Part shown: in pieces, positions 3,414-62,812 of the stretch | Layout of the letters: each line of letters opens with the position of its first letter | Numbering within the stretch: the stretch's first letter is position 1 | Assembly (NCBI RefSeq): GCF_050320075.1 | Contig: NZ_CP190018.1 | DNA length: 64,000 nucleotides | Reading direction: 5' to 3' (one strand) | From: Escherichia coli | GTDB taxonomy: Bacteria; Pseudomonadota; Gammaproteobacteria; Enterobacterales; Enterobacteriaceae | Position numbers and translations under genes: made by a program | Notes under the pieces: generated by a model | What the model saw: only the letters and a program-made list of their open reading frames with translations | What the model was told of the DNA's origin: nothing | The model's database searches: none

Positions 3414-5777
3414 ATGAAAACGCTGAAAAACTGGACCCTGCACAAACAGTCTGCCCACCACGTTGAACTGCTGGTCGATGGCCAGCATATCCTGTGCCTG
3501 TACGTGCTGGAAGAAAATCTGTTCCGCGTGCTGTTAAAACGCAAAGGCGAGCTGGCGCTGGATCGCACCTGGAGCATTGCTCCGGCGCAGGATGTGCCAT
3601 GGGAAGGGCGCAGCCGCGAAGATCTCAGCGGCTTTAGCCTGCCCGCGTGGACATTGATCCAGCACGACGACACCGTGGTTATCGCCACCGAGTCACTGCG
3701 TGCCACCGTTCACCAGCCGCTGTGGCTGGAGTGGCACTATCGTAACAACGAAGGCGAATGGCTGCCGTTGGTGAATGACCGCCCGACCAGCGCTTATCTG
3801 CTGAATGCCCACGGCGATGGCGTGGCACACTATCAGAGCCGTCGTAAAGATGAACGCTTTTATGGCCTCGGAGATAAAGCCGGCGACCTGCAACGCAACG
3901 GTAAACGTTACGAGATGCGTAACCTCGACGCGATGGGCTACAACGCCGTTAGTACTGACCCGCTGTACAAACACATTCCATTCACCATCACCCGCCGCGA
4001 TGACATTAGCTTCGGCCTGTTTTATGACAACCTCAGCAGCTGCTGGCTGGATCTGGGCAACGAGATCGACAACTACCACACCGCCTATCGCCGCTGGCAG
4101 GCGGAAGCGGGTGATATCGACTACTACCTGTTTACCGGCGAACGCGTACTTGATATCACCAAAGCCTTCGTACGCCTGACCGGCAAAACCCTGTTCGGAC
4201 CGAAATGGAGCCTGGGCTACAGCGGTTCAACTATGCACTACACCGATGCGCCGGACGCACAAAATCAGTTGATGAACTTTATCCGCCTGTGTGAAGAACA
4301 TGCGATTCCCTGCGATTCGTTCCAGCTCTCTTCCGGTTATACCTCAATTAACGGCAAGCGCTATGTGTTCAACTGGAATTACGACAAAGTGCCGCAGCCG
4401 AAAGTGATGAGCCAGGCATTTCACAATGCTGGTTTGCACCTGGCCGCCAATATCAAGCCGTGCCTGTTGCAGGATCACCCACGCTATAACGAAGTGGCAG
4501 AAAGAGGACTGTTCATCCGTGATTCAGAAACAGATGAACCAGAACGTTCCAGCTTCTGGGATGACGAAGGTTCTAACCTCGACTTTACTAATCCGCAGAC
4601 CATCCAGTGGTGGCAGGAAGGCGTGACCACACAGCTTCTGGAGATGGGTATCGACTCCACCTGGAACGACAACAACGAATTCGAAGTATGGGACGGTGAA
4701 GCACGCTGTCACGGCTTTGGTCAGACGATCGCGATCAAACATATTCGCCCGGTGATGCCACTGCTGATGATGCGAGCCTCGATGGAAGCCCAGCAACGTT
4801 TCGCTCCGGAAAAACGTCCGTACTTGATCTCCCGCTCCGGCTGCGCGGGAATGCAGCGCTATGTGCAGACCTGGAGCGGCGATAACCGCACTAGCTGGGA
4901 CACTCTGCGCTACAACACCCGCATGGGTCTGGGGATGAGCCTCTCCGGGCTGTATAACCTCGGTCACGACGTCGGCGGTTTCTCCGGTGATAAGCCGGAC
5001 CCGGAACTGTTTGTACGCTGGGTACAAAACGGCGTGATGCATCCGCGCTTTACGATTCACTCGTGGAACGATGACCATACCGTAAACGAACCGTGGATGT
5101 ATCCGGGCGTCACTCCGGCGATCCGCAGCGCTATTGAGTTGCGCTATCGCCTGCTGCCCTACTTTTATACCCTGATGTGGCAGGCATACGCCGATGATGA
5201 ACCAATGCTGCGTCCGACTTTCCTTGACCACGAGCACGACGTTCAGACTTTTGAAGAGTGTGATGACTTCCTGCTTGGTCGCGATATTTTGGTTGCCAGC
5301 GTCGTAGAGCAAGGCGAGCGCCAGCGCCGTGTATGGCTGCCAGATAACGAAACTGGCTGGTACGATTTCTACAACGGCGAATGGTTCAGTGGCGGTCAGT
5401 GGATCACCCTCGACGCACCGCTGGAGAAACTGCCGCTGATGGTGCGTGCCGGGGCTGGTCTACCGCTCAGCAAACGCATCACCTATGTGAGCGCAGAACA
5501 AGACGATACCCGCGAACTGAAACTGTTCCCGCTGAAAGGTGTGGGCACAACGTCCGGCCTGCTGTTTGAAGACGATGGCGAAAGCTGGGGCTACCAAACT
5601 GGTAATGCGCTTTGGGTGGAATGGGAAATGGTTTGCGATGGGGCGACCATCAACCTGAAAGTCAACGCGCGCGGGGATTATCGACCTGCATGGAGTGCAC
5701 TGAAAGTGTCATTACCAGTGGAAGAAAAACGCACGCTGCTGGTCAATGGTGTTGAAGGGAGTGAATGGATGCGTTAA
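3414..5777 (+). CDS. Glycoside hydrolase family 31 (alpha-glucosidase / alpha-xylosidase-like)
   Basis: ORF track 3402-5777; GH31 nucleophile-region motif MGIDSTWNDNNEF; ATG at 3414 (GTG at 3402 possible); starts 15 bp after MFS stop. Confidence 0.8.
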   Translation: MKTLKNWTLHKQSAHHVELLVDGQHILCLYVLEENLFRVLLKRKGELALDRTWSIAPAQDVPWEGRSREDLSGFSLPAWTLIQHDDTVVIATESLRATVHQPLWLEWHYRNNEGEWLPLVNDRPTSAYLLNAHGDGVAHYQSRRKDERFYGLGDKAGDLQRNGKRYEMRNLDAMGYNAVSTDPLYKHIPFTITRRDDISFGLFYDNLSSCWLDLGNEIDNYHTAYRRWQAEAGDIDYYLFTGERVLDITKAFVRLTGKTLFGPKWSLGYSGSTMHYTDAPDAQNQLMNFIRLCEEHAIPCDSFQLSSGYTSINGKRYVFNWNYDKVPQPKVMSQAFHNAGLHLAANIKPCLLQDHPRYNEVAERGLFIRDSETDEPERSSFWDDEGSNLDFTNPQTIQWWQEGVTTQLLEMGIDSTWNDNNEFEVWDGEARCHGFGQTIAIKHIRPVMPLLMMRASMEAQQRFAPEKRPYLISRSGCAGMQRYVQTWSGDNRTSWDTLRYNTRMGLGMSLSGLYNLGHDVGGFSGDKPDPELFVRWVQNGVMHPRFTIHSWNDDHTVNEPWMYPGVTPAIRSAIELRYRLLPYFYTLMWQAYADDEPMLRPTFLDHEHDVQTFEECDDFLLGRDILVASVVEQGERQRRVWLPDNETGWYDFYNGEWFSGGQWITLDAPLEKLPLMVRAGAGLPLSKRITYVSAEQDDTRELKLFPLKGVGTTSGLLFEDDGESWGYQTGNALWVEWEMVCDGATINLKVNARGDYRPAWSALKVSLPVEEKRTLLVNGVEGSEWMR

Positions 5778-5956: not shown

Positions 5957-7552
5957 TTAACCGTCGATCCCTTTACTACGCAGGTAATCTTCGTAATTAC
6001 CGCTAAAGTCGATCACGCGTTCCGGGGTGATTTCCAGAATTCGGGTCGCCAGGGAGCTTACAAACTCACGGTCGTGAGACACAAAGATCAGCGTGCCCTG
6101 ATACAGTTCCAGCGCCATGTTCAGCGACTCAATAGATTCCATATCCAGGTGGTTGGTCGGTTCGTCCATGATCAGAATGTTCGGCTTCTGCATCATTAAC
6201 TTACCAAACAGCATCCGCCCTTTTTCTCCACCGGAAAGCACTTTCGCTGGCTTTTTGATGTCGTCCTGGCTGAACAGCAAACGACCGAGAATGCTGCGTA
6301 CCGCCTGCTCATCATCGCCTTCCTGCTTCCACTGGCTCATCCATTCGAACACGGTCAGATCATTTTCAAACTCATATTCGTGGTCCTGGGCGTAGTAACC
6401 AATGCGTGCGTTTTCAGACCATTTTACGGTGCCGCTGTCCGGTTGCAGATCGCCCACCAGCGTTTTCAGCAGCGTTGATTTACCGACGCCGTTGGTACCC
6501 AGTACAGCCAGTTTTTCACCCACTTCCAGCAGCAGGTTGAGATTTTTAAACAGTGGACCGTTATCAAACCCTTTGGTCAGACCTTCCACTTCCAGCGCGT
6601 TACGGAACAGTTTCTTATCCTGTTCAAAACGGATGAACGGGTTCTGACGGCTGGAGGCTTTCACCTCTTCCAGTTTGATTTTATCAATCTGGCGCGCGCG
6701 CGAAGTTGCCTGGCGAGATTTCGAGGCGTTGGCGCTAAAGCGGCTAACGAAAGATTGCAGCTCAGCAATCTGCGCTTTCTTCTTGGCGTTATCAGCCAGC
6801 AGACGCTCACGCGCCTGGGTCGCCGCCGTCATGTACTCATCGTAGTTACCTGGATAAACGCGCAGCTCGCCGTAATCCAGATCCGCCATGTGGGTACAAA
6901 CCATGTTAAGGAAGTGACGGTCGTGCGAGATGATGATCATGGTGCTGTCACGCTCGTTCAGCACCTGTTCCAGCCAACGAATGGTGTCGATGTCGAGGTT
7001 GTTGGTCGGTTCGTCGAGCAGGAGAATGTCTGGATCAGCAAACAGCGCCTGCGCCAGCAGCACACGCAGCTTCCAGCCAGGAGCAACTTCACTCATCGGG
7101 CCGTAGTGCTGTTCCACTGGAATTCCCACGCCAAGCAACAGTTCACCGGCGCGAGCTTCCGCAGAGTAACCGTCCATTTCGCCGTATTTCACTTCCAGAT
7201 CGGCCACTTTATAGCCGTCTTCTTCACTCATTTCCGGCAAAGCATAGATGCGGTCACGCTCCTGTTTCACTTCCCACAACTCTTTATGCCCCATGATCAC
7301 CGTATCCAACACAGTGAACTCTTCAAAGGCAAACTGATCCTGACGCAGCTTACCAATGCGCTCGTTGGGATCGAGGGAAACGTTACCCAACGTCGGCTCT
7401 AAGTCGCCGCCGAGGATCTTCATAAAGGTGGATTTACCACTACCGTTCGCGCCAATCAGGCCGTAACGGTTGCCGCCGCCAAATTTGACGGAAATGTTTT
7501 CAAACAACGGCTTACTGCCGAACTGCATGGTGACGTTACTGGAAACTAACAC
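5957..7552 (-). CDS. ybiT: ABC-F family ATPase YbiT (two ABC domains)
   Basis: Translation begins [24 protein letters not shown] with two Walker A motifs ([18 protein letters not shown]); apparent GTG start. Confidence 0.9.
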
Positions 7553-7770: not shown

Positions 7771-8691
7771 ATGAATATGAAATTGAAAACATTATTCGCA
7801 GCGGCCTTCGCTGTTGTCGGCTTTTGCAGTACCGCCTCTGCGGTAACTTATCCTCTGCCAACCGACGGGAGTCGCCTGGTTGGTCAGAATCAGGTGATCA
7901 CCATTCCTGAAGGTAACACTCAGCCGCTGGAGTATTTTGCCGCCGAGTACCAGATGGGGCTTTCCAATATGATGGAAGCGAACCCGGGTGTGGATACCTT
8001 CCTGCCGAAAGGCGGTACTGTACTGAACATTCCGCAGCAGCTGATCCTGCCGGATACCGTTCATGAAGGCATCGTCATTAACAGTGCAGAGATGCGTCTG
8101 TATTACTATCCGAAAGGAACCAACACCGTTATCGTGCTGCCGATCGGCATTGGTCAGTTAGGCAAAGACACGCCTATCAACTGGACCACCAAAGTTGAGC
8201 GTAAGAAAGCAGGCCCGACCTGGACGCCAACCGCTAAAATGCACGCAGAGTACCGCGCTGCGGGCGAACCGCTTCCGGCTGTCGTTCCGGCAGGTCCGGA
8301 TAACCCGATGGGTCTGTATGCACTCTACATCGGTCGCCTGTACGCTATCCATGGCACCAACGCCAACTTCGGTATCGGCCTGCGCGTAAGTCATGGTTGT
8401 GTGCGCCTGCGTAACGAAGACATCAAATTCCTGTTCGAGAAAGTGCCGGTCGGTACTCGCGTACAGTTTATTGATGAGCCGGTAAAAGCGACCACCGAGC
8501 CAGACGGCAGCCGTTATATTGAAGTCCATAATCCGCTGTCTACCACCGAAGCCCAGTTTGAAGGTCAGGAAATTGTGCCAATTACCCTGACGAAGAGTGT
8601 GCAGACAGTGACCGGTCAGCCTGATGTTGACCAGGTTGTTCTGGATGAAGCGATCAAAAATCGTTCCGGGATGCCGGTTCGTCTGAATTAA
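7771..8691 (+). CDS. ldtB: L,D-transpeptidase LdtB (YbiS)
   Basis: Signal peptide, YkuD-type catalytic region (SHGCVRL); 306 aa. Confidence 0.9.
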
Positions 8692-53789: not shown

Positions 53790-53834
53790 AGGGCTTCTCC
53801 AAAACGTGTTTTTTGTTGTTAATTCGGTGTAGAC

Positions 53835-53869
53835 TCGTAAACCTAAATCTTTTCAATTTGGTTTACAAG
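53835..53869. promoter_or_regulatory. bio operator (BirA binding site) in the divergent bioA / bioBFCD control region
   Basis: Imperfect palindrome tcgtaaacctaaatcttttcaatttggtttacaag (gtaaacc ... ggtttac). Confidence 0.7.
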
Positions 53870-53875
53870 TCGATT

Positions 53876-55165
53876 ATGACAACGGACGATCTTGCCTTTG
53901 ACCAACGCCATATCTGGCACCCATACACATCCATGACCTCCCCGCTACCGGTTTATCCAGTGGCGAGCGCCGAGGGTTGCGAGCTAATTTTGTCTGACGG
54001 CAGACGCCTTGTTGACGGTATGTCGTCCTGGTGGGCGGCGATCCACGGTTACAATCACCCGCAGCTTAATGCGGCGATGAAATCGCAAATTGATGCTATG
54101 TCGCATGTGATGTTTGGCGGTATCACCCATGCGCCCGCCATTGAGCTGTGCCGCAAATTGGTGGCAATGACGCCGCAACCGCTGGAGTGCGTTTTTCTCG
54201 CGGACTCCGGCTCCGTAGCGGTAGAAGTGGCGATGAAAATGGCGTTGCAGTACTGGCAGGCCAAAGGCGAAGCGCGCCAGCGTTTTCTGACCTTCCGCAA
54301 TGGTTATCATGGCGATACCTTTGGCGCGATGTCGGTGTGCGATCCGGACAACTCAATGCACAGCCTGTGGAAAGGCTATCTGCCAGAAAACTTGTTTGCT
54401 CCCGCCCCGCAAAGCCGCCTGGATGGTGAATGGGATGAACGCGATATGGTGGGCTTTGCCCGCCTGATGGCGGCGCATCGTCATGAAATCGCCGCAGTGA
54501 TCATTGAACCGATTGTCCAGGGCGCAGGCGGGATGCGCATCTACCATCCGGAATGGTTAAAACGAATCCGCAAAATGTGCGATCGCGAAGGTATCTTGCT
54601 GATTGCCGACGAGATCGCCACCGGATTTGGTCGTACCGGCAAACTGTTTGCCTGTGAACATGCAGAAATCGCGCCGGATATTTTGTGTCTCGGTAAAGCC
54701 TTAACCGGCGGCACAATGACCCTTTCCGCCACGCTCACCACGCGCGAGGTTGCGGAAACCATCAGTAACGGCGAAGCCGGCTGCTTTATGCATGGGCCAA
54801 CTTTTATGGGCAATCCGCTGGCCTGCGCAGCAGCAAACGCCAGCCTGGCGATTCTCGAATCTGGCGACTGGCAGCATCAGGTGGCGGCTATTGAAGGGCA
54901 GCTACGCGAGCAACTTGCCCCCGCCTGTGACGCCGAAATGGTTGCCGATGTGCGCGTACTGGGGGCAATCGGCGTGGTCGAAACCACTCGTCCGGTGAAT
55001 ATGGCAGCGCTGCAAAAATTCTTTGTCGAACAGGGTGTCTGGATCCGGCCTTTTGGCAAACTGATTTACCTGATGCCGCCCTATATTATTCTCCCGCAAC
55101 AGTTGCAGCGTCTGACCGCAGCGGTTAATCGTGCGGTGCAGGATGAAACATTTTTTTGCCAATAA
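53876..55165 (+). CDS. bioA: Adenosylmethionine-8-amino-7-oxononanoate aminotransferase BioA
   Basis: 429 aa from ATG 53876 ([20 protein letters not shown]). Confidence 0.95.
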
Positions 55166-55223: not shown

Positions 55224-55700
55224 ATGAAACTCATCAGTAATGATTTACGCGATGGCGATAAGCTGCCGCATCGTCATGTCTTTAACGGCATGGGTTACGA
55301 TGGCGATAATATTTCACCGCATCTGGCGTGGGATGATGTTCCTGTGGGAACGAAAAGTTTTGTTGTCACCTGCTACGACCCGGATGCGCCAACTGGCTCC
55401 GGCTGGTGGCACTGGGTAGTTGTTAATTTACCCGCGGATACCCGCGTATTACCGCAAGGGTTTGGCTCTGGTCTGGTAGCAATGCCAGACGGCGTTTTGC
55501 AGACGCGTACCGACTTTGGTAAAACCGGATACGATGGCGCAGCGCCGCCGAAAGGCGAAACCCATCGCTACATTTTTACCGTTCACGCGCTGGATGTAGA
55601 ACGTATTGATGTCGATGAAGGTGCCAGCGGCGCGATGGTCGGGTTTAACGTTCATTTTCACTCTCTGGCGAGAGCCTCGATTACTGCGATGTTTAGTTAA
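55224..55700 (+). CDS. ybhB: PEBP-family protein YbhB
   Basis: 158-aa translation; last chromosomal gene before the att site. Confidence 0.85.
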   Translation: MKLISNDLRDGDKLPHRHVFNGMGYDGDNISPHLAWDDVPVGTKSFVVTCYDPDAPTGSGWWHWVVVNLPADTRVLPQGFGSGLVAMPDGVLQTRTDFGKTGYDGAAPPKGETHRYIFTVHALDVERIDVDEGASGAMVGFNVHFHSLARASITAMFS

Positions 55701-55789: not shown

Positions 55790-55804
55790 GTTAGTATAAA
55801 AAAG
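55790..55804. other. Lambda-type att core (attR junction): ttagtataaaaaagc
   Basis: Reverse complement of the 15-bp lambda core GCTTTTTTATACTAA, flanked on the ybhB side by bacterial-arm sequence cgctcaag. Confidence 0.85.
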
Positions 55805-55947
55805 CTGAACGAGAAACGTAAAATGATATAAATATCAATATATTAAATTAGATTTTGCATAAAAAACAGACTACATAATACTGTAAAACACAACATATGC
55901 AGTCACTATGAATCAACTACTTAGATGGTATTAGTGACCTGTAACAG
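55805..55947. promoter_or_regulatory. Lambda attP P-arm (Int arm-type, IHF, Xis, Fis site region)
   Basis: ~140 bp matching, as far as I can recall it, the reverse complement of the lambda P arm (...cgtaaaatgatataaatatcaatatattaaattagattttgcataaaaaacagactacataatactgtaaaacac...ctgtaacaga). Confidence 0.75.
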
Positions 55948-56510: not shown

Positions 56511-57389
56511 ATGCTGTTTAAATATTGTCCTATTAATGAGTATTCAATTAAATCTCTAGTGGAAAACAAACTATATCTTAATCATCTCAACATGATGAAT
56601 GACAGTGCTGAAGGTTTTTGTAAGATAATAAGTGGTTTCCCAGATTATAATGAAAAAACTGAGAGATATGATTTGATAATAAAAACATGGTGTGGAGAGT
56701 CTGGCTGGCTACCTTCTGAATATGAATATAACGAATATATTGATTCAATGAGAGAACTGGAACCAAATGTCCCGCAATTGCTGGACTCTGCAAGGATATC
56801 ATGCTTTACGAATACGGCGTTAAACCCTACAATGTGGGCTCATTATGCTAACAACAGAACAGGTATATGTATAGAATTCGATCAAGACAAAATAAGAGAA
56901 CTAGAGGATATCTATATCTTTGACGTCAAATATAAAGATCGCCCTCCGACTATTGATACTGCAGTACTAACATTAATAGCTGATCAGGTGAACTATAATC
57001 ATGATGCAATTTATGATGATTATCAAGAAAAGTTCAAACATCTTTATGAACAAGCATTTGACGAGGGAAGAAATTTGCTTTTGGAAATTTACAATGGAAT
57101 ATTGGCAACTAAATCTCAAGAATGGTCTTATGAACAAGAAAAACGGCTAATATATATTTTATCCTTCTCACAAGAAGACAAATTGGCAAAAAAATATAAA
57201 ACTGGCATAAACATATCACTCCCTGAAGGATGCATTAAAAGTGTTATCCTAGGTGAGAAGACAAGTGAGCATGATAAAAAACTTATAGTTTCAGCTATAA
57301 AAAAACATTCTAAACACATTAAGTTGAAGAGAGCTACAATAACACAAGGCGAATATTTATTATCTATTCGTGATGAAGTTTTTAGCTGA
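56511..57389 (+). CDS. DUF2971-like protein of unknown function (prophage cargo)
   Basis: 292 aa; N-terminal MLFKY...L.ENKLYL...NDSAEG and central SCFTNTALNPTMWAHYANNRTGICIEF match what I recall as DUF2971 hallmarks; visibly AT-rich by eye. Confidence 0.6.
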   Translation: MLFKYCPINEYSIKSLVENKLYLNHLNMMNDSAEGFCKIISGFPDYNEKTERYDLIIKTWCGESGWLPSEYEYNEYIDSMRELEPNVPQLLDSARISCFTNTALNPTMWAHYANNRTGICIEFDQDKIRELEDIYIFDVKYKDRPPTIDTAVLTLIADQVNYNHDAIYDDYQEKFKHLYEQAFDEGRNLLLEIYNGILATKSQEWSYEQEKRLIYILSFSQEDKLAKKYKTGINISLPEGCIKSVILGEKTSEHDKKLIVSAIKKHSKHIKLKRATITQGEYLLSIRDEVFS

Positions 57390-57934: not shown

Positions 57935-58348
57935 ATGGCTGACATTGTCACTGGTTTGACCGCACTCAAAACCGCCTTTGATTTAGCAAAAGATATAAAA
58001 AATGCCACTGGCGCATACAATGATGCAGAAATGAGGCTTAAGTTTAGTGAGCTTTATAGCGCGCTATCTGAAGCCAAAATAGAACTGGCTGATACACAGC
58101 TAGAAATGTATGAACTAAAGCTGAAGATCGAAGAGTTGCAAGCTAAGCTTGATGCATCGGACGAGCTTGAATATAGGGAAAACGTATACTGGAGGGCCTC
58201 ACCTATCAATGGCAAACCAAACGGTCCTTTTTGCCCAAGATGTTATGAAAGTTCAGAGAAGAAGCTATCTTCAATGAGTCAAGTAACGGGGCATGCAACT
58301 ATTGCTGGAAAATACAAATGTAATACTTGTAACGCCTACGTTAGATAA
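57935..58348 (+). CDS. Small coiled-coil protein with C-terminal CxxC...CxxC zinc ribbon (prophage cargo)
   Basis: 137 aa; heptad-like LKFSELYSALSEAKIELADTQLEMYELKLKIEELQAKL; CPRCY ... CNTCNAY; good SD. Confidence 0.6.
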   Translation: MADIVTGLTALKTAFDLAKDIKNATGAYNDAEMRLKFSELYSALSEAKIELADTQLEMYELKLKIEELQAKLDASDELEYRENVYWRASPINGKPNGPFCPRCYESSEKKLSSMSQVTGHATIAGKYKCNTCNAYVR

Positions 58349-58684
58349 AAAGCCGTTATGGGGCTGGGACGGAGGCTCAAATCCTCTCGTGCAAAAATTC
58401 AGCTAAAACTTTTGTTCAGGAGACTCTGAAAGATACCAAGAAGTCTGCTGACGAGTGGTTTATTTACTAATTAGCACGTAAAATCTATTATGGCTGGAAA
58501 TCATTCAATACTCGTACTATCGAAAGTTCGCCAGCCGACAGCAAAACGCTATTGCATGGCAGGGATTGCAGGCCTCTCGATATTCGGTGCTAAGGATGTA
58601 TCAACACGGTTCAGCAGAACCCGATGCGTCTTCAAAACCGCAGCAACGATATCTCTTCCTCCGTTCCATTTACAGCCACCTTTT

Positions 58685-58993
58685 TCACCCTCGATTAACC
58701 AACAACCAGACCAGAAGACACGCTACCACCGGCACAGCAAAATCCATCAGGCTTGCCATATCCCACGCGCGTGGGTCAAAACCGCCCCACCACGGCATAT
58801 TCATTCGCTTGCCATGCCCGAACATTTCGATCCAGCGATATTCTGCCTGGGTGTGTTCACGCGCAATGAAGAACGTACAACCGGCTATCGCCCCGTAAGC
58901 CCAGTTCCCGGTAAAAAGACCAATCAGTAGCTGCGCAGCCACAGCACAAAGCGCATGAAGGAAAGGTGTTATATCCATTTTCATCCCACCCAA
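58685..58993 (-). CDS. Small predicted membrane protein (prophage, unknown function)
   Basis: 102 aa with two hydrophobic segments; several alternative Met starts; lies just downstream of the tail-fibre genes. Confidence 0.5.
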   Translation of the reverse strand: MGGMKMDITPFLHALCAVAAQLLIGLFTGNWAYGAIAGCTFFIAREHTQAEYRWIEMFGHGKRMNMPWWGGFDPRAWDMASLMDFAVPVVACLLVWLLVNRG

Positions 58994-59020
58994 TAAAACG
59001 GGGCGCTCGGCCCCTTAATA

Positions 59021-60061
59021 TTATTTAGACGCAAGCGCCGCATCAATTGCAGATAATCTTTGTCTTAATTCTGCGTTTTCTTCTTCCAGTGCTGTTATTC
59101 TGTCGTCTGACTCTCTGGCTACCTGAACAAGCAAGCCAGTAACACCAGAATAATCTACTGTGTAATAACGTTCACCTTCTTCACCTTCCGATCCGCTCGC
59201 ACCGTCCTGATATTTCATTACGGAACCTACAACTTCTGGGATTGCTTCCAGAGCTTCCTGTGCAATGACACCAGCATAGGGCATACCGTTTTCTTTAAGC
59301 GTGTATGTATAGCCGTTCATTTTACGGATGCGGTCGGTTGCATTATCGATCACCTGAATGTTGTCTTTCAGATCCCGGTCGGAATGCTGGTTAAATGCGG
59401 TGGCATGACATGCACCATTAACGCTTAACATATAGGTGTTATCGGTATTTTTCTGCGCATAGAACATATAAGCGCCACCATCAACACCGACTTCATAAAC
59501 AACAGGACGGCTGGAGTTGCCCCACAATTGAGCAGTAACACCAGCATAAGCGGTTCCCTGTGTGTTTAATGTCATGGTTGACCCATGATTGGCATATTTG
59601 ATCTGTAATGTGTCGGTGTAATCAAATTTAATAAGCGCGTTACTTCCACGCTTGCTGTATGACATAAGGCAGTTACCCATTTTGAGGTATCCGCTGTCAC
59701 CGGGAAAAATCATCGTACCGCCATAAAGGTTGGTAAAGTCCCAGCAAATGTTTGTCCCGTTATCGTTCAGGTTAAGGCGCGCCATTGCGTTACCTGGACT
59801 GTCTATCCATTTTTTGAGGTATAGTTCGCAATATGCATCCTCAACACCTGCCGTCCTGTGAGTTGAGCGGAGTTTTCTCCCAAATATAGCTCCGCTAGTT
59901 GGCAATACCTGCTGATACCATGAAGCAGACCAGTCACCAACGGTTTCATCTTTGCTGTCTACATATGATTTTGTTGCGTAGCTTCCTTGATCGTTTTTTA
60001 ATTTGCTAACGTCGGATTTTAGCGTTTTGATGTCATCAGGAATTACTGTCGATGTAGCCAT
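59021..60061 (-). CDS. Tail fibre / spike-like protein with C-terminal intramolecular chaperone (peptidase S74-like) domain
   Basis: 346 aa; C-terminal SDRDLKDNIQVIDNATDRIRKMNGYTYTLKENGMPYAGVIAQEALEAIPEVV plus terminal coiled coil (ITALEEENAELRQRLSAIDAAL). Confidence 0.65.
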   Translation of the reverse strand: MATSTVIPDDIKTLKSDVSKLKNDQGSYATKSYVDSKDETVGDWSASWYQQVLPTSGAIFGRKLRSTHRTAGVEDAYCELYLKKWIDSPGNAMARLNLNDNGTNICWDFTNLYGGTMIFPGDSGYLKMGNCLMSYSKRGSNALIKFDYTDTLQIKYANHGSTMTLNTQGTAYAGVTAQLWGNSSRPVVYEVGVDGGAYMFYAQKNTDNTYMLSVNGACHATAFNQHSDRDLKDNIQVIDNATDRIRKMNGYTYTLKENGMPYAGVIAQEALEAIPEVVGSVMKYQDGASGSEGEEGERYYTVDYSGVTGLLVQVARESDDRITALEEENAELRQRLSAIDAALASK

Positions 60062-60070
60062 TTTTCTTCC

Positions 60071-60352
60071 TCACATCCAGCCACGAAGTTGATGCTCAAC
60101 AGCAACCACGTATTCATCGAATATTGACGGTGTTTTCACATCATTAATGATGCGCACGTTTACAAAATATCCGTCTTCCTTAACACATACCGGTTCGCCA
60201 TCTTCATTCAGTTCTCCGGTTTCTTTGTACACGTTACCTATCACGTCAATAAGAATATCATCCTGCATCGACTCATCATCATAATAGCCAGTGCTATCCA
60301 TAAAGGCCGAAAAATCGGCCCTGTCGGCAAATTTAAGTGTTAAATCTTTCAT
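60071..60352 (-). CDS. Small acidic protein translationally coupled to stf (possible fibre assembly/accessory protein)
   Basis: 93 aa; ATG overlaps stf stop (ATGA); no family recognised. Confidence 0.5.
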   Translation of the reverse strand: MKDLTLKFADRADFSAFMDSTGYYDDESMQDDILIDVIGNVYKETGELNEDGEPVCVKEDGYFVNVRIINDVKTPSIFDEYVVAVEHQLRGWM

Positions 60353-62748
60353 TTAATACTCTCCCCCATTTGCGCATCAGTTAATTCTTTATGCCAGAGA
60401 CGAAGATTTCTCAAATGGCCGAATAGATGACGTGTCCCTGATGTGGCTTGACCTCCTATTCTAATAAAGGTCCGCGTTTTTACGCCCGTCCATTCCGTTT
60501 CAATGGTTTTAGTAGCCTCACCGTTAGAAACTACTCGTTTAGTACCGTCAGAATAAATATTAAAACCACCAATGAATTTTCGAACATCCGTTCGACCAGT
60601 AAACAAACTAGAAACGTAACTACTTGTCGACGCTTTATAAGTTTGCATATAAAGCTGACCGTAATATCTCTCGGTTGTGTTAAAAGCGTATGTGATTGAC
60701 TCAATAGGCGGCACACCAGAAAAATCAAAAATACGCGGTGCTACATTAGGGGGAATATCGCCCCAATTCCTGTTAACCTCGACCAAACAAGTAAGCGGTC
60801 TGTTATAAATGTTGTTTTCGGTCGGGATCGTAACCATATCACTCGCACGAGTCGCCGCCGTCGCTCCTGATATAATAAAAGATGATACACAAGGCCCATC
60901 TTCTACTTGTGGGGTGGCCAGATAAATATAGTCACCAGATACGGTTGCCCCGCTCTGCTTAGGAGAATACTGTATCTGAGAGCCTATTTTTAACTCCCCA
61001 TCAATTGCCTGAATTGTTGCCTCTGCAAAAATCCATCCGGTAGCTTCGTCCTTTCTGACTCTCGCTGTAATCCTTGAGGCAGCACCGCCTGTCATATTAA
61101 TTTCAAGCGTTTGTGTATCAATATACGCATCACCAAGAAAAGTTGTTGCGCTACCGTCATATTTATCAAACCGGATACGCAACCTTACCTGCAGTTCTGT
61201 TTTAAAACGACATGAGGTTGTCACGTATTTATTATCGCCTGAGACATCAACTGACTTTGTTGCAGCAATTGATGCCATATTAATGGCTGAGGTTTGCCCA
61301 ATCAGAGAATCGTTACAGACAAACTTTCCATAGGTAAAACCAAAACTATCCGTCCCGGTTTCGGGAACATCCATATTTGACGATCGCCCCCAACTGGCAG
61401 GGCTTTCCGAATTGAGCATGTAGTTCGCTCTTTGCCCCTCAATAAGCAGGCCATCACGTTCAAATCGTGGCTCGTCAATGGCAGCCTCTGTCAGCACACC
61501 AGATTTATTAATATAGGTTGCTTTCGATGCGCGTTTAAACTTTACAACCTTATCGCCAGGCATCGTTATTTCATCATCACCAATAACAATCTTTTTATAT
61601 GACGGCGAAAACCCCGTAATCATATCCAGTGAATCGTTAAACGGTATCCACACATCAGGCAACGGCTGCAAAACTTGTTTATACGGCTCCGCTGCCTGGC
61701 TTGCATACTCTCTGGCTGCGTCTTCACTTGCTTTAGCTGCTGTCTGGCTTGCTGCCGATGCTTGCGCCGAGTTCGCCGCTGTAGTCTCGCTCGCCTTTGC
61801 GTTGTCTTCACTGGTTTTTGCAGCTCTTTGACTGTTGGCTGATGCCGTGGCAGAAGCAGCCGCCGCGCTTGCAGAACCAGCTGCGGCACTCTCGCTTTGG
61901 GCCGCTGCATCCTGACTGTTTTTCGCCGCAGTTTCGCTGGCTTTGGCATTCGTTTCGCTGGTCTTCGCTGCAGTCTCGCTTGTCTTTGCGTTGGTTTCAC
62001 TGGTTTTTGCAGCTCTTTGACTGTTGGCTGATGCCGTGGCAGAAGTAGCCGCCGCACTTGCAGAACTGGCTGCCGCTCTCTCGCTTTGGGCTGCTGCATC
62101 CTGACTGTTTTTTGCTGCGGTAGCGGAGTTTGCTGCGGCACTCTGACTCGATTCTGCAGCCACCTCGCTATTTTTCGCATTAGTTTCGCTGGTCTTTGAA
62201 GCTGTCTCACTCGCTTTTGAGTTGTTTTCTGATTTTTTGGCTGCAGTCGCGGAGTTTGCCGATGCAGTCTGTGAGGCCGCTGCCGCCTGTGCGCTGTTAG
62301 CTGCATTCGTTTCTGAGGTTTTCGCCGCGTTCTTCGATGATGCCGCTGCAGTTTCGGATGTCTTTGCCGCCGCTGCGCTCTGAGAGGCGGCTTCAGCGTT
62401 GCGTGCCGCTTCTTCCACCATTTCCTGAAAACGGCGCAATGCCTCCGGCATGACATCATCTTCCGTCATGGCACCGAGAAAATCATTCAGCGTCCCCGGA
62501 CTGGAACCTTCATAGACGGTAATGGTCCCGGCATGTGAAGGCGGAAAACCTTCAACCAGCAGGATGACGCTGTACTGGCCATACTCAACGTCCATACTGT
62601 AACGCCCGGCTTCATCAGGATTTTCAGAGGCCACCGTGTTCACCAGTACCGTGGTGCTGTTACGCTTTGCCTTCAGTTGAATAGTGCAGTTCTGTATTGG
62701 TTTTCCCGCACCATCTTTCAGCACACCTGAGATTTTTACTGCTGCCAT
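60349..62748 (-). CDS. stf: Side tail fibre protein Stf-like (lambda Stf N-terminus, Ala/Ser/Thr-rich repeat shaft, LamG-like distal domain)
   Basis: N-terminus MAAVKISGVLKDGAGKPIQNCTIQLKAKRNSTTV... matches lambda Stf as I recall it; C-terminus ...FGHLRNLRLWHKELTDAQ resembles LamG-domain ends; ATG at 62748. Confidence 0.8.
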   Translation of the reverse strand: MAAVKISGVLKDGAGKPIQNCTIQLKAKRNSTTVLVNTVASENPDEAGRYSMDVEYGQYSVILLVEGFPPSHAGTITVYEGSSPGTLNDFLGAMTEDDVMPEALRRFQEMVEEAARNAEAASQSAAAAKTSETAAASSKNAAKTSETNAANSAQAAAASQTASANSATAAKKSENNSKASETASKTSETNAKNSEVAAESSQSAAANSATAAKNSQDAAAQSERAAASSASAAATSATASANSQRAAKTSETNAKTSETAAKTSETNAKASETAAKNSQDAAAQSESAAAGSASAAAASATASANSQRAAKTSEDNAKASETTAANSAQASAASQTAAKASEDAAREYASQAAEPYKQVLQPLPDVWIPFNDSLDMITGFSPSYKKIVIGDDEITMPGDKVVKFKRASKATYINKSGVLTEAAIDEPRFERDGLLIEGQRANYMLNSESPASWGRSSNMDVPETGTDSFGFTYGKFVCNDSLIGQTSAINMASIAATKSVDVSGDNKYVTTSCRFKTELQVRLRIRFDKYDGSATTFLGDAYIDTQTLEINMTGGAASRITARVRKDEATGWIFAEATIQAIDGELKIGSQIQYSPKQSGATVSGDYIYLATPQVEDGPCVSSFIISGATAATRASDMVTIPTENNIYNRPLTCLVEVNRNWGDIPPNVAPRIFDFSGVPPIESITYAFNTTERYYGQLYMQTYKASTSSYVSSLFTGRTDVRKFIGGFNIYSDGTKRVVSNGEATKTIETEWTGVKTRTFIRIGGQATSGTRHLFGHLRNLRLWHKELTDAQMGESIK
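61809..62122. repeat. Tandem direct repeat (period 189 bp) inside stf
   Basis: cactggtttttgcagctctttgactgttggctgatgccgtggcagaag... occurs at 61809 and again at 61998. Confidence 0.8.
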
Positions 62749-62812
62749 ATCCACTCCACAAAAAAGCCCGCCTGAACCGGCGGGCTGTCATAACACTGTG
62801 TTACCTGGCTAA

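Follow-up and report, generated by a model that had tools for sequence, protein, structure and literature searches.

The window, i.e., the whole 64,000-nucleotide stretch of Escherichia coli DNA analyzed here, has at its right end a lambda-like prophage integrated at attB(lambda), beside bioA/ybhB. Past the att core, plus-strand cargo genes come first and are followed by the minus-strand tail genes, i.e., gpJ, lom, the side tail fibre, the gene for a 93-aa PHROG 1361 protein, and that for a fibre of 346 aa containing a Peptidase_S74 domain (Table 1). The short open reading frame (ORF) considered below lies between these two groups. In a preliminary description, it was said to end the late strand in convergence with the cargo, and this is borne out by the gene order: the plus-strand cargo facing it comprises a DinI remnant, a 137-aa Zn-ribbon protein, and a DUF2971 protein.

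Table 1. Features at and around the ORF (positions in the window)
Feature	Position	Strand	Basis
bioA	53813-55165		annotated
ybhB	55224-55700		annotated
Lambda att core GCTTTTTTATACTAA, prophage end by ybhB/bioA	55791..55805	-	exact match, 0.01 expected by chance
DinI-like pseudogene fragment, first element on the convergent cargo side	58393..58470	+	RefSeq annotation, identical strain 144 locus
28-aa remnant of tail-fibre assembly (Tfa) C-terminus, just 3' of the ORF	58549..58635	-	RefSeq annotation
CDS of the 97-aa three-helix membrane protein (PHROG 1443 family), including stop codon	58685..58978	-	ORF list, RefSeq start, PHROG, AF2, dN/dS
5' extension of the mechanical ORF (TTG 58993, ATG 58984), containing SD-like GGGTGGG, probably untranslated	58979..58993	-	sequence, homologue starts
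Terminator-like hairpin GGGGCCGAGCGCCCC then GTTTTATT, between fibre stop codon and ORF start	59000..59014	-	consensus scan
Tail fibre, 346 aa, C-terminal Peptidase_S74 intramolecular chaperone domain	59021..60061	-	Pfam PF13884 at 4.7e-14, PHROG 4563
93-aa PHROG 1361 protein, function uncharacterised; direct upstream neighbour of the family gene in phage 21	60071..60352	-	
Side tail fibre, Stf-like, 801 aa, start of the fibre module	60349..62754	-	ORF; RefSeq 'prophage tail fiber N-terminal domain-containing protein'

Some of the surrounding genes have recognizable features of their own. The 292-aa DUF2971 cargo protein (56511-57389, plus strand), encoded between attR and the tail genes, matches PDC-S31, a candidate defence family of PADLOC (E 9.5e-38), as well as PHROG 1762, so it is likely the product of a prophage-borne anti-phage gene. 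The 137-aa protein convergent with the ORF (57935-58348, plus strand) combines an N-terminal coiled coil with a C-terminal Zn-ribbon (PHROG 1244, weak match to Zn_ribbon_IS1595). On the tail side, the Ala/Ser/Thr/Glu-rich repeat of stf (…AAKTSETNAK…) yields a 279-aa out-of-frame ORF on the same strand (61620-62459, minus) and several antisense ORFs, all of them artefacts of the repeat composition. The DNA homology of the ORF region extends ~75 nt beyond the stop codon (DNA alignment), and a Tfa remnant is also present behind the phage 21 copy, which suggests that the ORF has replaced most of a tfa gene and now moves with the tfa 3' end.

The preliminary description gave the ORF 102 codons at 58685-58993. 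Such an ORF does exist on the minus strand as a mechanical call from a TTG, and the stretch NMPWWGGFDPRAWDM quoted from it is present, but its likely start is located further downstream. Translation almost certainly begins at the ATG at 58978, which yields a 97-aa protein (MDITPF...), since this codon is the RefSeq-annotated start in the strain 144 locus (100% identical), the homologue in the phage 21 record is annotated from the equivalent start, the PHROG 1443 profile alignment begins at residue 6 of the 102-aa ORF, the N-termini of the homologues read MD(I/L)(T/S)P, a Shine-Dalgarno-like GGGTGGG lies 6 nt upstream, and in a DNA alignment of the window with phage 21 and the P22-like phage Gally, homology starts exactly at this ATG.

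Family, fold, and conserved residues

The ORF matches PHROG 1443, an uncharacterised phage family, over its full length (E 1.2e-58; residues 6-101 of 102 against profile positions 1-96 of 97). A word-seeded search retrieved 575 homologous clusters at 90% identity, and an exhaustive profile search 427 clusters at 50% identity, all of them stand-alone proteins of ~60-145 aa. The family ranges over the Alpha-, Beta-, Gamma-, and Deltaproteobacteria, chromosomal loci included. Of 5426 complete E. coli genomes, 1895 (35%) contain the 294-nt gene, with a median of two and up to seven copies per positive genome (three in strain 144), and every copy in these genomes is annotated as 'hypothetical protein'. 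The median dN/dS over 48 distinct E. coli prophage alleles is 0.13, indicative of purifying selection; variable positions in these alleles make up 7 of 40 in the central loop and 21 of 57 elsewhere. The ORF is hence confirmed as a real gene, conserved far beyond chance. That it might be a non-coding recombination linker or a hitch-hiker is ruled out by the dN/dS value together with the reach of the family into distant bacteria. Many of the E. coli prophage contigs in IMG/VR (L007-L086) end exactly 3 nt past the CDS (e.g., locus length 6294, match 6001-6291), so virus-boundary callers often take it as the last viral gene.

Searches for characterised relatives returned little. The Pfam scan (E up to 0.1) gave only a sub-threshold match to the PhoR N-terminal domain (E 0.049), the NCBIfam and PADLOC scans of the protein nothing above threshold, the comparison with the PDB by sequence and fold no informative match, and the BFVD fold search no match; no sequence or fold link to any enzyme or transporter was found in Pfam, the PDB, or BFVD. 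The source names of the homologues are all 'hypothetical protein', and searches of the literature on exclusion proteins adjacent to receptor-binding proteins (RBPs), phage 21, PHROG 1443, and Kdo/kps in sphingomonads retrieved nothing on the PHROG 1443 family. The earlier statement that nothing in the sequence identifies the ORF holds for Pfam, NCBIfam, PADLOC, the PDB, and BFVD, and no relation to a characterised structural or assembly protein was detected with Pfam, PHROG, NCBIfam, or the PDB. Assignment to the PAP2, BacA/UppP, CAAX/Abi protease, or DgkA enzymes was considered and rejected, as the conserved motif fits none of their signatures.

The AlphaFold2 model (33-sequence alignment, mean pLDDT 94) features a membrane fold with three helices, 4-23, 26-53, and 74-96, and the hydrophobic stretches span residues 4-23, 26-39, and 80-94. 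The ORF was rightly described earlier as encoding a small membrane protein, but the two hydrophobic helices proposed then become three in the model. Helix 2 is predicted to run out of the membrane as REHTQAEYRWIEMF and to continue into the loop GHGKRMNMPWWGGFDPRAWD.

Among the sequences from Enterobacterales, Aeromonas, and Comamonas, 25 positions do not vary. Across 74 sequences with an average identity of 28%, H8, R40, E41, W72, and P83 are invariant, and Q44, A45, E46, R58, and D79 are conserved in at least 90% of the sequences. In the model, the conserved residues form a polar, aromatic-rich site at one membrane interface, a pattern which would fit the binding of an anionic lipid head group or sugar, or else catalysis. 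As to the side of the membrane, the positive-inside count gave conflicting signals: ~6 K/R per 40 residues in the conserved loop would put the loop in the cytoplasm, whereas the acidic N-tails and basic C-tails, as well as lipobox-like or signal-peptide-like N-extensions in a few members (P0157, P0178), would put it in the periplasm. The phage 21 record quotes a TMHMM prediction of '2 TMDs, N-in, C-in'.

Neighbourhoods in phages and in bacterial chromosomes

The gene directly follows a tail-fibre or tailspike gene in sipho-, myo-, and podoviruses, virulent ones included. In phage 21, it comes after stf and the PHROG 1361 gene and before the sitABCD cargo; in Gally, it is situated between the tailspike gene and int; the myovirus Halomonas phiHAP-1 displays the order tail-fibre assembly gene, family gene (overlapping), sheath gene. 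In a P2-like prophage of Leclercia, the S74 fibre stops at 8000 and the gene starts at 8001, a Comamonas prophage harbors GpJ, a 72-aa gene, and then the family gene, and in a metagenomic contig the tailspike gene overlaps it. The gene abuts or overlaps a neighbouring late gene in Leclercia, Sphingobium, Desulfovibrio, phiHAP-1, and Aeromonas phages, and jumbo Aeromonas phages carry it as well.

The commonest upstream partner of the PHROG 1443 family is a fibre terminated by Peptidase_S74. The upstream gene is homologous to the S74 fibre of the window in 64 of 80 E. coli viral contigs; in six others, the fibre C-terminus looks S74-like by eye, without profile support, which makes ~70 of 80 in all. 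An S74-type fibre is found directly upstream also in Leclercia, Sphingobium, Desulfovibrio, and the virulent siphovirus Escherichia phage HC6.

In HC6, a frameshifted and unannotated remnant of the gene (L006 3965-4120) is retained right after the S74-terminated tailspike, and a remnant of this kind is also present in Salmonella phage ST1UNAM and in phages PBM-2 and PBM-3, likewise virulent siphoviruses. Remnants of this type suggest that a single cassette comprising the fibre tip and the small gene is exchanged and decays afterwards.

Two types of the junction between the fibre and the gene prevail in E. coli. The first, to which the window belongs (~33 of 75), has a 5-bp GC hairpin and a T-run 20 nt before the start; the second (~38 loci) reads TAA-AGGAGGAGTA-ATG, with a 10-nt gap, a strong Shine-Dalgarno (SD) sequence, and no hairpin. 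The hairpin of the window folds no better than shuffled sequences (z = -0.9), so a working terminator is not claimed here, and the ~20 nt between it and the ORF start leave no room for a promoter (consensus scan). Since the hairpin is weak and no promoter fits behind it, the gene would most simply be the last cistron of the late transcript; late co-transcription is likewise suggested because the fibre/gene junction is usually tightly coupled. A moron-like layout was encountered only in Gally, where a strong terminator (3798-3818) and a promoter-like site (3835-3864) precede the ORF (consensus scan).

These arrangements bear on the earlier suggestion that the position is typical of conversion or exclusion cargo. 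The positions in Gally (tailspike/int) and phiHAP-1 (tail-fibre assembly/sheath) agree with it, but lysogen-specific expression is not supported. Because of the 10-nt SD junctions lacking a terminator, the overlaps with late genes, and the copies in virulent phages, a late, fibre-coupled function would fit at least as well as lysogenic conversion.

To trace the family in cellular genomes, one genome of each species was scanned for the pattern [TA]QAEYRWI, which gave 80 loci, mostly in Sphingomonadales and Hyphomicrobiales but also in Enterobacterales, Aeromonas, Comamonas/Acidovorax, and Desulfovibrio. The genes in these loci were called and clustered anew, and the clusters were annotated with Pfam. 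In 26 of the 56 alphaproteobacterial loci, genes for KpsS/C (PF05159), OPX (PF02563+SLBB), KdsA, KpsF (SIS+CBS), or KdsB/KpsU are located at most 8 kb away, and in 16 of these 26 a KpsS/C or OPX gene on the same strand precedes the family gene by 21-97 bp; with this crude gene calling, ~30 alphaproteobacterial loci were without kps genes. Other recurring neighbours encode a PhyH dioxygenase, a GT2, a sulfatase-family protein, a fatty-acid hydroxylase, a UDP-sugar dehydrogenase, and an epimerase.

The kps context was confirmed in Aureimonas and Erythrobacter by independent gene calls with precomputed Pfam annotation. In Aureimonas, kpsC, kpsT, kpsM, a gene for a 419-aa protein, and kpsS are divergent from kpsD(OPX)-OMP-X-kdsA-kpsU-kpsF, where X is the family gene; in Erythrobacter, the order OPX-X occurs with PhyH, kdsA, kpsF, kpsU, and Capsule_synth nearby. 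In four metagenomic contigs, KpsF is followed by the family gene. The window protein is 52% identical to an Aureimonas-type alphaproteobacterial protein (P0125). In Aeromonas species, a non-prophage chromosomal copy resides between the pirin and RIO1-kinase genes, 1.2-2.4 kb from two LpxL/M (lipid A acyltransferase) genes. Because of the kps-type alphaproteobacterial loci and the Aeromonas chromosomal copies, the family would seem to possess a phage-independent cellular role, tied by its neighbourhood to the assembly of a Kdo-dependent surface glycolipid or capsule. The copy in the window belongs to a prophage and not to a kps locus, a location within such loci being particular to the alphaproteobacterial homologues.

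Sphingomonadales are generally described as lacking LPS. The loci of this order that harbor the small gene (L176, L112, L128, L132, L138, and others) contain around it kdsA, kpsF, kpsU, KpsS/C, OPX, PhyH, a fatty-acid hydroxylase, and a sulfatase-family membrane protein, and look like an undescribed Kdo-glycolipid or capsule pathway.

Possible role and alternatives

The gene can be classed as an RBP-adjacent, putatively envelope-acting accessory gene of an uncharacterised but very common family. Tentatively, and with considerably less than even confidence, we propose that its product is an inner-membrane accessory to the assembly of lipid-linked surface glycans and that phages would use it for receptor masking. 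The putative site at one membrane face (H8, R40, E41, Q44, E46, R58, W72, D79, and the PWWGGFD loop) would act on or bind a lipid-linked anionic glycan intermediate, e.g., a Kdo-linked capsule or an LPS-type glycolipid. The kps-type capsule loci of Alphaproteobacteria would have the protein as a resident accessory, and phages would have taken up the gene and fused it transcriptionally to receptor-binding genes, typically those of polysaccharide-type fibres ending in S74. The surface glycan displayed by an infected or lysogenic cell would thereby be altered, so that fewer further phages adsorb or less progeny is lost on debris (masking or conversion). What the analysis shows is a real gene with its family, a confident fold, conserved residues, recurring gene contexts, and coupling within the operon; the substrate, the effect on the surface, and the benefit for the phage are inferred.

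Consistent with a role in surface-glycan assembly are the homologues in kps loci, the position beside RBPs in phages, the constraint on the sequence, and the conserved site. RBPs terminated by S74 typically bind capsules or O-antigens (e.g., endosialidases, T5 pb1), and the tailspike-int slot occupied by the family gene in Gally is the one where P22-type phages keep their O-antigen conversion genes. Several points count against this role: no such gene is known from E. coli kps loci, several relatives adjoin lysis genes instead, and a protein that hardly varies beside highly diverse RBPs is not tailored to a single receptor. A more specific version, which we regard as doubtful, holds that the protein is a hitherto unrecognised, minimal (~95 aa, possibly oligomeric) inner-membrane part of the machinery assembling a Kdo-linked capsule or glycolipid. 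It would be an enzyme or else an adaptor, with a His/Arg/Glu/Asp/Trp site at the membrane interface, and would have been captured repeatedly by phages of many morphotypes and coupled to polysaccharide-specific fibres to reprogram the host surface.

The phage seroconversion cassettes beside tailspike genes (P22 gtrABC, Sf6 oac, CUS-3 neuO, and the D3/epsilon15 polymerase inhibitors) occupy the same position by a polysaccharide-specific RBP and have the outcome proposed here for the family gene, i.e., a changed surface glycan masking the receptor. The family gene differs from them in having no sequence relation (no GtrA, acyltransferase, or other Pfam match), in encoding just one protein of 97 aa, which is extremely conserved although its hosts have different glycans, and in probably being co-transcribed with late genes as a rule instead of being expressed divergently; neither a match to the four-TM GtrA (PF04138) nor gtrB/gtrC-like neighbours were found in the window. 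Group 2/ABC-transporter capsule systems (KpsMTED, KpsCS, KpsFU) are related to the family through the alphaproteobacterial homologues residing inside such loci, directly after kpsD-like OPX or kpsS/C-like genes and beside kdsA, kpsU, and kpsF, yet no described Kps component is known to correspond to the protein, and searches of the source names and of the Kdo/kps literature found none.

Like the family gene, Cor (phi80, N15, HK022, T1) and Llp (T5) are small accessories encoded beside receptor-binding or tail-fibre genes, an arrangement with a shared genomic logic. Both are lipobox-bearing lipoproteins of the outer membrane; they block FhuA and guard the infected or lysogenic cell from further adsorption. 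The window protein, in contrast, is predicted to be integral to the membrane, with three helices, and cellular homologues of it are found in capsule loci. It lacks the signal peptide and lipobox of Cor and Llp: its N-terminus (MDITPFLHALCAV...) has no basic n-region, and residues 4-23 form a membrane helix in the AlphaFold2 model.

Alternatively, although we find it unlikely, the protein might be an inner-membrane superinfection exclusion factor, made late or in the lysogen, that blocks genome entry in the manner of T4 Imm, P22 SieA, or HK97 gp15. A small inner-membrane protein ending the tail-fibre module would suit this role, Cor-type exclusion genes also being located there, as would the moron-like layout in Gally (terminator and promoter-like site before the ORF), the very frequent and multi-copy occurrence in E. 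coli prophages, and the presence in virulent phages, which is shared with Imm and Llp. Imm, SieA, and gp15 are likewise small phage inner-membrane proteins lacking an enzymatic domain recognizable from sequence. Still, no similarity to them in sequence or fold was found (Pfam, functional PHROG, PADLOC, BFVD), the protein itself has no PADLOC or Pfam match, and stable chromosomal homologues in capsule/Kdo loci and Aeromonas core regions are hard to explain by exclusion. Those systems are narrow and phage-restricted, whereas the PHROG 1443 family spans four proteobacterial classes and chromosomal loci, and the E. coli prophage protein retains 52% identity to P0125, unlike known narrow exclusion families. 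The cellular homologues in Kdo/capsule export loci would point to surface-glycan assembly and not to a phage-specific injection block. Overall, the evidence favours late, fibre-coupled expression and a surface-glycan link over a lysogen-specific exclusion factor.

A lysis-associated membrane protein, i.e., a holin partner, an antiholin, or a factor conditioning the envelope late in the programme, seems improbable too. The gene shares with holins a small product with at least one transmembrane domain (three predicted helices here), and its coupling to the late operon would accord with such a function. In distant relatives, a holin/antiholin gene of PHROG 126 overlaps its stop codon (L180) or a gene for an Rz-like spanin follows 159 nt downstream (L181); in Comamonas (L089), genes for two multi-TM proteins and an SLT-like PHROG 3108 protein adjoin it, Aeromonas phage 62AhydR11PP has PHROG 3108 and TM-rich PHROG 1544 neighbours, and lysozyme-like genes are located 147-384 nt downstream in Acidovorax and Comamonas. 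This adjacency, however, may simply reflect the seat of the gene where the tail module meets the lysis module. The lysis cassette of lambdoid phages is found elsewhere and is complete without a PHROG 1443 gene, and the window gene is not in a lysis cassette by an endolysin but follows the tail-fibre genes and precedes the cargo. Moreover, the protein ends in ...LLVNRG, three residues past the last helix, without the charged tail typical of holins; it has no holin PHROG or Pfam match, its near-invariant loop is unlike holins, and the capsule-locus homologues have no lysis partners.

The PHROG 3108 proteins themselves (L089 7970-8521, L005 2499-2996), encoded beside multi-TM proteins, contain a GLQES...GFWQFE motif recalling lytic transglycosylases and are probably unannotated endolysins of Comamonas and Aeromonas phages.

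A helper that positions, matures, or releases S74-type fibres at the membrane is highly improbable: an S74-terminated RBP does directly precede the gene in several unrelated phage lineages, often by no more than 0-10 nt, which puts the gene in the usual slot of fibre chaperone genes (tfa), but as intramolecular chaperones S74 domains need no helper, many members of the family come after a non-S74 RBP or have no RBP before them, and no fibre chaperone is known to be an integral membrane protein. The remaining probability goes to some other function.

Overall, roughly one in three complete E. coli genomes carries the gene, frequently in several prophages at once, and no curated family contains it. 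If its product alters capsule or LPS assembly as proposed, it would be a hidden and very widespread factor determining phage susceptibility and surface antigenicity, with a bearing on phage therapy, serotyping, and competition between prophages, and it would add a component to the ABC-transporter-dependent capsule pathway of Alphaproteobacteria. The tight coupling to S74-type fibres offers a simple experimental handle. Under the more specific version given above, it would rank among the commonest uncharacterised surface-modifying genes in E. coli prophages.
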